A stretch of DNA of 10,564 nucleotides. Origin: a virus. A program made the translations under genes and the position numbers. The stretch lies in the UHGV virus genome UHGV-1326494. The stretch is one strand, 5' to 3'. The notes under the pieces were generated by a model. It saw only the letters and a list, made by a program, of their open reading frames with translations, ran no database searches and was not told where the DNA came from. Below, one piece after another: positions 3,863 to 7,629 of this stretch. Numbering within the stretch: position 1 is the stretch's first letter; the number at the start of each line of letters is the position of its first letter.

Positions 3863-3896
3863 CCAAATAAAAAGGCCTGCGATTATCAGCAGGCCT
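3863..3896 (-). terminator. Intrinsic terminator between helicase and ninB (tR2-analog position)
   Basis: Perfect 8-bp inverted repeat aggcctgc (3873-3880) / gcaggcct (3889-3896) with an 8-nt loop. On the minus-strand transcript the hairpin is followed by UUUUAUUU (complement of 3865-3872). Confidence 0.6.
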
Positions 3897-3921
3897 GTTA
3901 TTAACTCAGTGATGTAGATGG

Positions 3922-5298
3922 TCATACGTCAGCCCCTTGTGCATATCGTCTGCCACGCGCAGCAGGTGCATTTGATGCTGTGCAAATCTGTCTGGCTTCA
4001 TCCTGGTCACATGCAACAAAGTGTCCGTTGCAGAACCGCTGGTAAACCGTACCAAGTGAGCCAAAACGGTTTTTCGTCACGATGATTTCAGCAAATGGCG
4101 CGGCGCTACTGTTCTCGTCATATACCGCTTCCCGATAGAGCATGATGATTGAGTCTGCGTCCTGCTCAATGCTTCCTGAATCACGCAAATCTGCGTTTGT
4201 CGGGCGTTTGTTTGGTCGCTTCTCAACATCGCGCGAAAGCTGACTCAGGGAGATAACCGGTGTTTTCAGGTCTTTCGCCATCGCCTTCAGGCTTCCGGAG
4301 ATGTGAGCAATTGCGAGGTCGTTGCGGTCTGCTTTCGGCTTCTCAATCAGGCCAAGATAATCCGCCATGATGAGTGACAGGTTTGGATTTTCCTGTTTGT
4401 GCCGTTCTGCGATTGAGCGTATTTCTTCGACCGATAACCGCGAGGCATCGACTACCCATACATCCAAATCTGCAAGCTGACTCATGCCGTTAGCAACACG
4501 CGCCCAGCCTTCGTCATCCATCGATGCAGGATTTCGCAGCACGCTAACAGACATCCTCCCGGCGTTGGCAATGCTTCGCTCTGCAATCTGCAATGCGCTC
4601 ATTTCCATCGAGAAAATCAACACTCCGCGCCGGATGTCAGAACCAGGAATAACGCGGCTTGCAACGCCTTCGGCAATCTTCAGCGCCAGTTCGGTTTTCC
4701 CCATACCCGGACGAGCAGCGATAATCACCAGGTCTTCCGCGTTCATCCCTCCGGTGATGGCGTCAAGTTCTTCGATTCCGGTCTTCAGGGTATCTGATTC
4801 CTCTCCGTTCCTCAGACGCCTGTCAAGCGTGTCAGTGTAGTCAGTGATGATTTCCCCTAACCGTACAGGTTTAACCTCGTCACGGGGCTTTCTGATGACT
4901 GAAAGACGCTTTACAAGCTCGTCCATCGCCTGACTCGATGTATCGATGGTTCCGCTCTGAATTGGTTCACGCATTTCATCCATGATTTCCAGCACCAGAC
5001 GGCGGTGATAGTTATCCGCGACCATTCCGGCATATCCCTTCAGGTTTGCGGCACTCGGGCAGTTCTTACTGGTCATCAGGATTGACGTGAAATGCTCCTC
5101 TCCGCACGCCTCGGCAACCATCAGCGCGTCGATTAGGTTTCTGTTTCTCGCCTGCTTACGGATAACTTCGAAGGCTTTCCTGTAGAGCGGAATTGAAAAC
5201 GCTTCCGGCTCAAGCGTTGCCAGAACGTCACTGGCGGTTGGAGTTAATCCACCAATCAGCAGGCCACCGATAACGCTCGCTTCGATATCCTGTCTCAT
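3922..5298 (-). CDS. Replicative DNA helicase, DnaB family (458 aa; P22 gene 12-like)
   Basis: 458-aa ORF with a DnaB-like N-terminus ([12 protein letters not shown]), Walker [10 protein letters not shown] and a RecA-like C-terminal fold. ATGA overlap with the upstream O-like gene stop. Confidence 0.9.
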
Positions 5299-6116
5299 GC
5301 AATCCCCCTGTCTGCAAACTTCCCTTCCCGAACTCCCGTTAACGAATCTTCCCTCAGCAGGTAATCAAAATCGGCCGTCCAGCCAGTGTCGTTGTCTCCG
5401 AAGTAAAACGGCTTGGCCTGATGTACAAACGCCCTGACATACGCTCTGAAACCGTCCACGTTTGGCGTTTTCAGTTGCGGGATGATTTTCTTCAGGCGGC
5501 GTTTGCGTTTCTCGTTGACCGCAACAGCGTGTGGCAGTCTGTCACCGACTTCGGTGTTGTAGGCGTTCAGGAAGGATTCGTAGTCGATTCGTTCTGCCTT
5601 GCGACGTTCAGGTTTAACCTGCCCATCGCCGCCCCCGTTAGGGGGTAAGGGGGTATTTGTATTTATTGTCTTTTGTATATTGTCTTTTGTGTTTAGCTGA
5701 CTTGGCTTATACCCATTAGCCGACTCGGCTAATGTTTTATTAGCTGTTTTAGCTAATGTTAAGCTGTCCTGGCTAATCCACTGAGAAACCACCTTGTTCA
5801 CTCCGATTTTCACGCCATCAGCAATGAGGAATTTACGCTCGATAAGCTGGCGCTTGGCAGCGCAAACATGAGTGTGATGAATACCTGTCATGGCTGCTAT
5901 CTGCGTGTTTGTGAGTCGATCCATCGGCTTATTGAATCCGTATGTCTTGCGCATGATAGCGAGCATCACCTTCAACTGCCGGACGGTTAAATCAGCCATC
6001 AGCAGACTGTCGGTAATCTCGTTAGCAACGCGCATGAAACCATCTTCGGTATCTGCCACGCGATGCTCCACGACCTCCAGTTGAGGCCTGTAATCAGCTA
6101 ACTTAACGACGCCCAT
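5295..6116 (-). CDS. Replication initiator / replisome organizer, lambda O-like N-terminal domain (273 aa; P22 gene 18-like)
   Basis: N-terminus ([22 protein letters not shown]...) resembles the phage O-protein DNA-binding domain. The gene contains the iteron array and AT-rich tract expected of an embedded origin, plus a Gly/Pro linker encoded by a G-rich palindrome. Confidence 0.85.
5632..5776. repeat. Candidate origin of replication inside the O-like gene: four dyad-symmetric ~17-bp iterons plus an AT-rich tract and a G/C palindrome
   Basis: Iterons TTAGC-N7-GCTAA at 5693-5709 (TTAGCtgacttgGCTTA), 5716-5732 (TTAGCcgactcgGCTAA), 5740-5756 (TTAGCtgttttaGCTAA) and about 5760-5776 (tAAGCtgtcctgGCTAA), spaced 20-24 bp. 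Adjacent AT-rich tract 5651-5692 contains ttgtcttttgt twice. Palindrome ccccc-gtta-ggggg at 5632-5645. Confidence 0.6.
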
Positions 6117-6264
6117 GTTTCACTCCTGCTTTGGCTAGTCTGTAAACACCAACAAGGCGCTCTGCGAACGCCCTGTTATTTGCTGCGGCTACCACTAATC
6201 CCTCAGGTGAATCAGGGTGTCGAATCTCTTCTTTTTCCTGGTATTTCTTACGACGTTTTGTCAT
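6103..6264 (-). CDS. Hypothetical small basic protein (53 aa) between c1 and the O-like gene
   Basis: ATG at 6262-6264 preceded by AGGAG at about 7 nt. [53 protein letters not shown]. The 3' end overlaps the O-like start by 14 nt. ORF track shows a longer 68-aa version that overlaps c1. Confidence 0.4.
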   Translation of the reverse strand: MTKRRKKYQEKEEIRHPDSPEGLVVAAANNRAFAERLVGVYRLAKAGVKHGRR

Positions 6265-6298
6265 AATTACTCCTGTGGATTGATCCAGTCTTTCTACA

Positions 6299-6577
6299 TC
6301 AGGCCTCAAAACTGTTGCAGCAGTCTTGAGGCTTTTCTTTTGTCAGCACCTTGGCTACTTTCTTTGCCAGTTCCGCCAATTCCTCGTCTTCAACACCCCA
6401 CTCCAGCACAGCCAGAAGCATGGCCATCTTTGGGATAAAACTGTCTTTCCATCGCGAAATTTGCGATTCATTAATCCCTAACGCGTCAGCAACCTTTCGC
6501 TGACCACGTACAGCAATTCGATTCAGGATGTTGCTTGTAATTGCATTCGCTTTCTTGCGAGTACTTGTAAGTTGCAT
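6299..6577 (-). CDS. c1: cII-like transcriptional activator (P22 c1-type, 92 aa)
   Basis: Start chosen at ATG 6575-6577 (MQLTSTRKKANAITSNILNRIA...GINESQISRWK...MLLAVLEWGV), which has the cII-family helix-turn-helix and conserved C-terminal motif. The longer track ORF (121 aa) would run through nutR. Confidence 0.8.
   Translation of the reverse strand: MQLTSTRKKANAITSNILNRIAVRGQRKVADALGINESQISRWKDSFIPKMAMLLAVLEWGVEDEELAELAKKVAKVLTKEKPQDCCNSFEA
6301..6343 (+). terminator. Plus-strand intrinsic terminator overlapping the 3' end of c1; candidate terminator of an oop-like antisense RNA
   Basis: Stem gcctcaa (6303-6309) / ttgaggc (6326-6332), with an inner actg/cagt sub-stem, followed by cttttcttttgt. 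Orientation is antisense to the PR operon. A possible extended -10 (TGTCATAAT, 6259-6267) lies about 65 nt upstream on the plus strand. Confidence 0.45.
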
Positions 6578-6685: not shown

Positions 6686-6871
6686 TTATGCCGCTTTGCG
6701 GTAAGCGCTTTCTTGATACTTCAGGGCGCCAGCTGTAACGACTTCCAGTCGATAGGCGTCTTTCTCTGGGATGACTTCCTTCCACTGAGAGACTGCTGCG
6801 TCGCTAATGCCTAACGCTTTAGCTACAGCACGCTGGGTTCCGAAGTGGTCGATAACATCTTTCTTGTACAT
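6686..6871 (-). CDS. cro: Cro repressor (P22 Cro-type, 61 aa)
   Basis: ORF track 61 aa, MYKKDVIDHFGTQRAVAKALGISDAAVSQWKEVIPEKDAYRLEVVTAGALKYQESAYRKAA, with a helix-turn-helix. Divergent from the repressor across the operator region. Confidence 0.9.
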   Translation of the reverse strand: MYKKDVIDHFGTQRAVAKALGISDAAVSQWKEVIPEKDAYRLEVVTAGALKYQESAYRKAA

Positions 6872-6951: not shown

Positions 6952-7602
6952 ATGAAAACTCAATTGATGGGAGAGCGCATTCGCGCTCGGAGAAAAGAAC
7001 TCAAGATCAGGCAGGCCGCACTTGGAAAGATGGTCGGCGTGTCTAATGTTGCCATATCTCAGTGGGAACGCTCTGAGACAGAGCCAAATGGAGAGAATCT
7101 TCTCGCCCTGGCTAATGCGTTGAAGTGTTCCCCTGACTATCTGATGAAAGGAGAGGAAAGTCTTTCAAACATTGCCTATCACAGTAGGCATGATCCAAGA
7201 GGGTCATACCCTCTGATTAGCTGGGTGAGCGCAGGATGCTGGATGGAAGCTGTAGAACCATATCATAAGCGTGCAATAGATAACTGGTACGATACAACCG
7301 TAGACTGTTCAGAAGATTCGTTTTGGTTGGACGTGAAGGGAGACTCAATGACGGCTCCGGCCGGTCTCAGTATCCCTGAAGGAATGATAATACTCGTCGA
7401 TCCTGAAGTAGAGCCGCGTAACGGGAAACTGGTAGTTGCAAAGCTCGAAGGAGAAAACGAGGCAACTTTCAAGAAGTTAGTTATTGATGCAGGCAGGAAG
7501 TTTCTAAAACCACTTAACCCACAATATCCGATGATCGAGATCAACGGAAACTGCAAAATCATCGGCGTAGTTGTCGATGCAAAACTAGCAAACCTTCCAT
7601 AA
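6952..7602 (+). CDS. c2: Prophage repressor, P22 c2 / lambda cI family (216 aa) with HTH N-domain and LexA-like autocleaving C-domain
   Basis: ORF track 216 aa. N-terminal HTH (QAALGKMVGVSNVAISQWERSE) and C-terminal S24 peptidase-like domain (AG cleavage region, VKGDSM serine motif, a K near the C-terminus). Length matches P22 c2. Confidence 0.9.
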   Translation: MKTQLMGERIRARRKELKIRQAALGKMVGVSNVAISQWERSETEPNGENLLALANALKCSPDYLMKGEESLSNIAYHSRHDPRGSYPLISWVSAGCWMEAVEPYHKRAIDNWYDTTVDCSEDSFWLDVKGDSMTAPAGLSIPEGMIILVDPEVEPRNGKLVVAKLEGENEATFKKLVIDAGRKFLKPLNPQYPMIEINGNCKIIGVVVDAKLANLP

Positions 7603-7629
7603 GGGGGCATTCGCCCCTTTTTTTTATTT
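7601..7629 (+). terminator. Intrinsic terminator immediately after the repressor gene
   Basis: Hairpin aagggggc-attc-gcccctt (7601-7619) followed by a T-run (to 7629). It overlaps the repressor stop codon. Confidence 0.7.

Follow-up and report, generated by a model that had tools for sequence, protein, structure and literature searches.

The window, by which we mean the whole stretch of 10,564 nucleotides analysed here (virus genome UHGV-1326494), contains a lambdoid immunity and replication region in the orientation opposite to that of the lambda map. The ORF list, with support from Pfam, gives the gene order cI, cro, cII, small ORF, O-like gene and DnaB-like gene. Apart from the cI-type repressor (6952-7602, plus strand; HTH_3 and Peptidase_S24), all of these genes lie on the minus strand. 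They encode a P22_Cro protein identified using Pfam (6686-6871), a 92-amino-acid activator of the cII or P22 c1 type (6299-6577; Phage_CII, PF05269, E = 9.3e-45, with a match covering positions 1-91 of the 91 in the profile), a small protein of 53 amino acids belonging to the HK97 gp53 family (6103-6264, from the ORF list), an O-like protein recognised in Pfam as Phage_rep_O (5295-6116) and a DnaB-like protein (3922-5298, from the ORF list and Pfam). In related phages the cII homologues are annotated as cII or c1, and Sf6, HK629 and ES18 have homologues of the small ORF whose annotation notes a similarity to HK97 gp53. The profile search attributed no Pfam family to the small ORF itself. The last 14 nt of the small ORF (6103-6116) are shared with the beginning of the O-like gene, an arrangement that suggests translational coupling of the two genes.

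Two further features of this region concern its regulation and replication. A sequence with the form TTGC-N6-TTGC (TTGCTTGTAATTGC, 6531-6544, plus strand), the CII/C1 box of the promoter pRE, is located within the 5' end of cII. It is the sole match in the window, yet taken alone it is not significant; the site is also annotated in Sf6, HK620, CL707 and P22. Inside the O-like gene (5692-5777) there are four iteron-like direct repeats of about 22 nt with a core AGCYGNNNNGGCTAAT and a spacing of 21-24 nt. These are probably the replication origin, and a rep_origin is annotated at the corresponding place in the O genes of Sf6, HK620 and ES18.

Between the small ORF and cII, which is the site of oop in lambda, the plus strand carries the element considered here (6259-6341). 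The initial annotation had described a hairpin and U-tract terminator antisense to the last codons of c1, and this structure is indeed present (6301-6341). Its hairpin, tO (6301-6334, plus strand), has 14 pairs, a 1x1 internal loop and a 4-nt loop, UGCA, and reads AGGCCTCAA-A-ACTGT-TGCA-GCAGT-C-TTGAGGCTT. The U tract (TTTTCTTTT, 6333-6341) overlaps the 3' end of the hairpin. Together they cover the cII stop codon (6299-6301) and the last 13 codons of the gene. The calculated energy of the hairpin alone is -18.6 kcal/mol. For the 76-nt stretch from 6270 to 6345 it is -26.5 kcal/mol (z = -4.6), and none of 200 shuffled sequences was as stable. Our own scan for hairpins followed by T tracts found tO among five sites in the window, compared with 0.6 +/- 0.6 per dinucleotide shuffle. 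A consensus terminator scan of the window missed tO, probably due to the internal loop, which seems to fall outside the stem-loop rule of that scan.

Upstream of the hairpin on the same strand lies an extended -10 (TGTCATAAT, 6259-6267), composed of TG (6259-6260), any base (6261) and CATAAT (6262-6267). The distance of about 65 nt originally given between the two applies only when the 3' side of the hairpin or terminator is taken as the end point: the hairpin begins 34 nt after the -10 hexamer, and the terminator ends about 66-75 nt after it. The complete motif occurs once in the window and is identical to that of lambda pO. Alone, TGNCATAAT is not significant (an expectation of 0.37 per window, with at least one copy in 61 of 200 shuffles), and the weight given to the -10 therefore derives from its homology and position and not from motif counts. 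The -35-like sequence of pO is the weak hexamer TGGTAT (6239-6244, plus strand), which agrees with the consensus at two of six positions and is placed 17 nt before the -10. An alternative, CTGGTA, is 18 nt before it, and overall the -35 is poor (two to three of six). The position of TGGTAT corresponds to that of TTGAGT in lambda and TGGTCA in P22; the latter comprises the first six bases of the stretch annotated as the oop promoter in the P22 record. The hexamer sits in the coding sequence of the small ORF, so that any conservation of the -35 is inseparable from protein constraint. Since the -35 is weak, a sigma-70 consensus scan of the window did not call pO. As the initial annotation proposed, this promoter overlaps the translation start of the small ORF: CAT at 6262-6264, within the -10, is the start codon read on the minus strand, and the Shine-Dalgarno sequence GGAG is found at 6270-6273.

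The surroundings of pO belong to a block shared by many phages. A core of 33 bp (TTTGTCATAATTACTCCTGTGGATTGATCCAGT, 6256-6288, plus strand) is identical at 30 of 33 bases to its lambda counterpart (TTTGTCATAATGACTCCTGTTGATAGATCCAGT, from the reverse complement of lambda 38560-38760; L005, 360-560). It is the reverse complement of ACTGGATCaATCcACAGGAGTaATTATGaCAAA, which Hayes and co-workers published, reading the other strand, as a conserved 33-bp pO/oop block of lambdoid phages (PMC3349717). These authors trace it to the 'sequence 5' of the HK620 paper (PMC3349717), and the Sf6 annotation marks the same position as boundary sequence bsq5. We found the core in 212 loci, in which 48 distinct sequences flank it on the left and 79 on the right. 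In the window, the segment 6230-6289 is 100% identical to phages with a cII and oop of the lambda type (HK629, mEp234 and Stx2 phage 1717), and HK629 carries an annotated lambda-type oop beside it. The segment 6255-6348, on the other hand, is 96.8% identical to P22, whose small ORF differs. With its left flank shared with phages carrying a lambda-type cII and its right flank with P22, the core is a joint between exchangeable modules.

Because the core also includes a Shine-Dalgarno sequence and a start codon and serves as a recombination boundary, its conservation alone is no proof of a promoter. We compared the upstream sequences at the 212 loci. The 48 distinct ones form 23 clusters encoding different N-termini on the other strand. 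Among these 48 contexts, position -12 is C in 46, position -14 is G in 38 and position -15 is T in 35, and position -13 varies freely (T in 20, G in 15, C in 9 and A in 4). On the coding strand this corresponds to a second codon NCA (Thr, Pro, Ala or Ser) in which the first base is variable and the synonymous third base is held. Such a pattern at -15/-14 fits the TGn of an extended -10 better than it fits protein constraint. A hexamer of the form TTGnnn or TGGnAn also recurs 17 nt upstream; it is within coding sequence and we give it little weight. A second case is provided by the Erwinia phage vB_EhrS_49 (L089, 420-445), in which the start codon of the small ORF is shifted by 3 nt (GGCATGTATAATTACTCCTG). 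Despite this shift, a perfect TATAAT is retained in register with ACTCCTG and the conserved start of the RNA, which speaks for selection on the -10 itself, separate from that on the start codon.

The RNA predicted from these two signals (6275-6341, plus strand) would be about 63-67 nt long, with a 3' end in the U tract at about 6340-6341. Its 5' end could be either of two bases. Lambda OOP RNA is 77 nt long and starts with pppG (PMC3349717). The +1 G in lambda comes after CATAAT plus 7 nt, and the equivalent base in the window, with the same spacing, is G6275. The second candidate, G6278, lies 3 nt downstream of G6275 and 11 nt after the -10, and corresponds to the 5' end of the P22 reads. The exact start is uncertain because the reads from P22 and the homology with lambda disagree by these 3 nt. 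The P22 reads come from small-RNA sequencing of infected Salmonella, which revealed ten phage RNAs including P22C-oop, a 63-nt species with the sequence GAUUGAUCCAGUCUUUCUACAUCAGGCCUCAAAACUGUUCCCGCAGUCUUGAGGCUUUUCUUU (PMC13397905). Its level was 1513 RPM after infection, against 0 in uninfected cells (PMC13397905). Positions 6278-6340 of the window agree with P22C-oop at 61 of 63 bases, and both differences (G6317 and A6319) are in the hairpin loop. In the GenBank record OQ031658 (P22virB-3), TGGTCAGGACTGAGTTGTTTTGGCATAAT is annotated as 'promoter oop; similar to phage lambda' and the hairpin as 'terminator oop'. In addition, an RNA in the transcriptome of BTP1, a P22-like prophage of Salmonella Typhimurium D23580, has been annotated as OOP(BTP1) (PMC7067206). 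The experiments proposed in the initial annotation have thus, in effect, already been carried out for P22; repression of c1 itself has been shown only for lambda.

Being encoded in cis, the predicted RNA is fully complementary to the end of cII, which it overlaps by 43 nt, and to the 24 nt that follow the gene. Its predicted fold includes a small 5' stem-loop (6275-6297; GUGGA..GAU...AGU..UCUAC) in addition to the terminator hairpin.

Downstream of GATCCAGT the 212 loci contain 79 distinct sequences. Each of these 79 alleles forms a stable hairpin, located about 62-81 nt past the conserved start. In nearly every allele the stem leads into a T-rich run, although this is interrupted in the Klebsiella-type alleles (CATCTCTTTT, CGCCTTTT). 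The alleles fall into a short length class of about 66-67 nt (P22, Sf6, L, Erwinia and Klebsiella types) and a long one of 77-81 nt (lambda and 933W types). We aligned 31 distinct alleles of the short class (alignment A1) and derived their common structure using RNAalifold, which returned 18 pairs, 12 of them with compensatory changes on both sides. In this structure 92.8% of the cells are paired, compared with 75.1 +/- 1.1% in shuffled alignments (none of 500 reached the native value), and the proportion falls to 31-53% if the partners are slid by one to three columns. Within the terminator helix, each of the 11 pairs has changed on both sides, and pairing is kept in 91.8% of cells across the 31 alleles. 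The mean hairpin energy is -19.7 kcal/mol for the native alleles but -12.2 kcal/mol for chimeras that combine the 5' and 3' arms of different alleles. The covariation events are not independent, since they represent some six to eight types of hairpin, and the shuffle statistics overstate their independence. Nevertheless, the comparison clearly points to maintenance of structure rather than sequence in tO, despite the location of the hairpin in the final codons of cII. A similar but fainter hint comes from the 5' stem-loop, where there is one compensatory pair (columns 4 and 20 of A1): 6278:6294 is G:C in the group of the window, P22 and Sf6 and A:U in 22 other alleles. This may mean that the 5' stem-loop is also kept, or may reflect only two lineages.

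Taken together, the comparisons indicate that the element is very probably the P22-type allele of the lambdoid oop, consisting of pO, a short non-coding RNA and tO, and hence something already known. It is located between cII and the replication genes and is directed opposite to pR, and the 3' part of its RNA is antisense to the last cII codons. Its promoter is homologous to that of lambda, is embedded in the 33-bp core and has a -10 that covers the start codon of the next rightward gene. Finally, an intrinsic terminator is present on the antisense strand 60-80 nt from the start. The initial annotation had seen a likeness to lambda oop, and this is borne out by the pO homology, by a tO in the same place and by the P22 counterpart that has been both annotated and sequenced. 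A search of Rfam 15 gave no hit at 6250-6350, even at E <= 10. The lambda and P22 oop sequences gave only sub-threshold chance hits in Rfam 15, which appears to contain no oop family, and so this result says nothing against membership. We also checked the features tagged 'promoter' under the match in Sf6, HK620, ES18 and CL707; these proved to be pRE, pR or pRM, and not pO.

The closest relative is the oop of P22, whose promoter pO and terminator were described by Backhaus and Petri (1984), as cited in PMC13397905. The P22 element is found in the same position antisense to the 3' end of c1 and shares with the window CATAAT with its upstream TG, the terminator stem and the U tract. The differences are upstream and include the -35 (TGGTAT in the window, TGGTCA in P22) and the base at -13 (T in the window, G in P22). 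They arise because the window has a small ORF of the HK97 gp53 type, whereas P22 has orf48. The hosts also differ, being E. coli for the window and Salmonella for P22.

The lambda element has the same position in the gene order and the same strand relation to cII and the replication gene. Its promoter and the first 14 nt of its RNA are homologous to those of the window, its -10 similarly covers the start codon of the next gene, and its intrinsic terminator is likewise placed inside the last codons of cII. From nucleotide 15 onward, however, RNA body and terminator have no sequence relationship in the two elements. The RNA measures about 66 nt in the window and 77 nt in lambda, and the overlap with cII is 43 nt and 55 nt, respectively. 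In lambda the 5' stem-loop is larger and tO is GC-rich (GCCGCCGGGC). In addition, lambda pO overlaps the start of O directly, whereas in the window it overlaps the small ORF that precedes the O-like gene. The mechanism has been tested experimentally in lambda, whereas the element in the window is known from its sequence. Krinke, Mahoney and Wulff reportedly published a study of lambda OOP RNA in 1991. A third type, the oop of 933W and other Stx phages (L092), shares the 33-bp core and likewise has its intrinsic terminator within the last part of cII, but belongs to the long class (about 80 nt); its body and terminator (CCCCGGCGGCCACCGGGG) are different, and the cII linked to it is of the lambda type.

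By analogy with lambda, the element could act as follows. RNA polymerase would start at pO, which coincides with the translation start (ribosome-binding site and start codon) of the small ORF, and would transcribe the plus strand from about G6275-G6278 until it stopped at the hairpin and U tract (6301-6341), to give an RNA of about 63-67 nt. This RNA would pair with the pR transcript across the last 13 codons of cII, the stop codon and the bases immediately beyond it. The duplex would then be cut by RNase III, shortening the life of the cII message and lowering the amount of CII. Less CII would mean less pRE activity and fewer lysogens, and the decision would be tilted towards lytic growth. 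In lambda, hydrolysis of cII mRNA is RNase III-dependent and overproduction of oop gives clear plaques (Krinke and Wulff 1987 and 1990, as cited in PMC3349717 and PMC3985674). For this prophage we infer both transcription of the element and an RNase III-dependent effect on cII. Possible control of lambda pO by LexA received no support: LexA is not mentioned in PMC3349717 or PMC3985674.

A different view is that the promoter itself has the main job. Firing head-on against pR, pO would damp transcription towards the O-like gene and its iterons and so tune the initiation of replication. The short RNA would then be largely a by-product, which must end before it runs antisense through cII, cro and pRE. 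There is a precedent for this in lambda, where inactivation of pO raises pR-driven expression beyond pO and impairs replication of both phage and plasmid, and where raised levels of oop RNA barely affect plasmid copy number (PMC3985674). The geometry of the window is also suitable: pO faces pR, and the O-like gene, which carries the iteron-like repeats described above, starts 146 nt downstream of pO. However, interference by the promoter alone requires no overlap with cII, and yet the terminator is always located inside the last cII codons. The promoter effect is known from lambda, whereas the replication module here is of the P22/HK97 type, and a lambda/P22 hybrid escaped the oop-ori inhibition phenotype (PMC3349717). 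A role for the promoter does not, moreover, exclude the antisense role, which has also been shown in lambda. We consider it doubtful that control of replication by the promoter is the main function. As a second function beside the antisense RNA, with which it is compatible, interference between the convergent promoters pO and pR is possible.

The position of pO raises another possibility. In modules with a small ORF of the HK97 gp53 or the P22 orf48 type, the start codon lies under the -10, and a gap of just one or a few bases separates the 5' end of the RNA from the Shine-Dalgarno sequence. Occupancy of pO, or pairing by oop, might therefore also gate translation of the small ORF, and this could reach the replication initiator because of the 14-nt overlap between the small ORF and the O-like gene. 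If so, one element would couple the lysis-lysogeny decision to the start of replication in a way that is not described for lambda. The suggestion is drawn from the geometry, and we regard it as improbable.

An explanation without a separate RNA gene can also be proposed, in which the core is conserved simply as a translation start region and recombination joint and the hairpin is a structure of the sense transcript from pR, such as a processing or stabilising element at the end of cII. Read on the other strand, the core does contain GGAG and ATG for the gene downstream; it coincides with the boundary sequence of Sf6 and marks mosaic joints, and the hairpin can form on both strands. On the minus strand, however, the hairpin is followed by CTGATGTAGAAAG, without a U run, and this rules it out as a terminator of the sense (pR) transcript; the T-rich run that follows the stem in nearly all alleles is on the antisense strand. 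RNAs with exactly these ends have been seen in P22 (PMC13397905), an OOP RNA is annotated in BTP1 (PMC7067206) and lambda oop is the classic 77-nt transcript (PMC3349717). Neither the TG at -15/-14, kept at a synonymous site, nor the TATAAT of vB_EhrS_49, in register in spite of a moved start codon, would be expected from a translation start and a joint. This explanation is very unlikely. Chance co-occurrence of a -10-like motif and a hairpin can practically be dismissed: a motif such as TGNCATAAT is cheap at its expected frequency, and the consensus scans flagged neither part, but the homology with lambda, the near identity to the P22 RNA, the covariation in 31 alleles and the z-score of the fold all contradict it.

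The 121 bases from 6230 to 6350 match 328 phage records. Among 5426 complete E. coli genomes they match 957, of which 272 do so over at least 80% of the query. Several E. coli genomes match at 100%, and their annotation at this place includes only a CII protein and a hypothetical protein. Since oop RNA is not listed in RefSeq phage records or in E. coli prophage annotations (PGAP), and seemingly has no Rfam model, the element is unmarked in hundreds of genomes. It carries little weight as a discovery, as oop is a textbook antisense regulator whose P22 version has been annotated and sequenced and whose core has been published. It is useful as an annotation, and the covarying alleles, at least 31 in number, would suffice to build a model of the Rfam type.

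Other hairpins with T tracts occur elsewhere in the window. Two of those flagged by our scan are in the origin region, with T tracts from 5656 and 5733. The hairpin at 5733 falls within the palindromes of the repeats and that at 5656 is just upstream of the repeats; both were rejected as terminators and taken instead as structure of the origin region. A terminator-like hairpin with a T run is found directly past the stop codon of cI (7581-7629, plus strand; GGGGGCATTCGCCCC plus TTTTTTTTATTT), and another past the DnaB-like gene (3865-3913, minus strand; GGCCTGC..GCAGGCC plus TTTTTATTT). The latter has a sub-threshold match in Rfam to the Trp_leader terminator.
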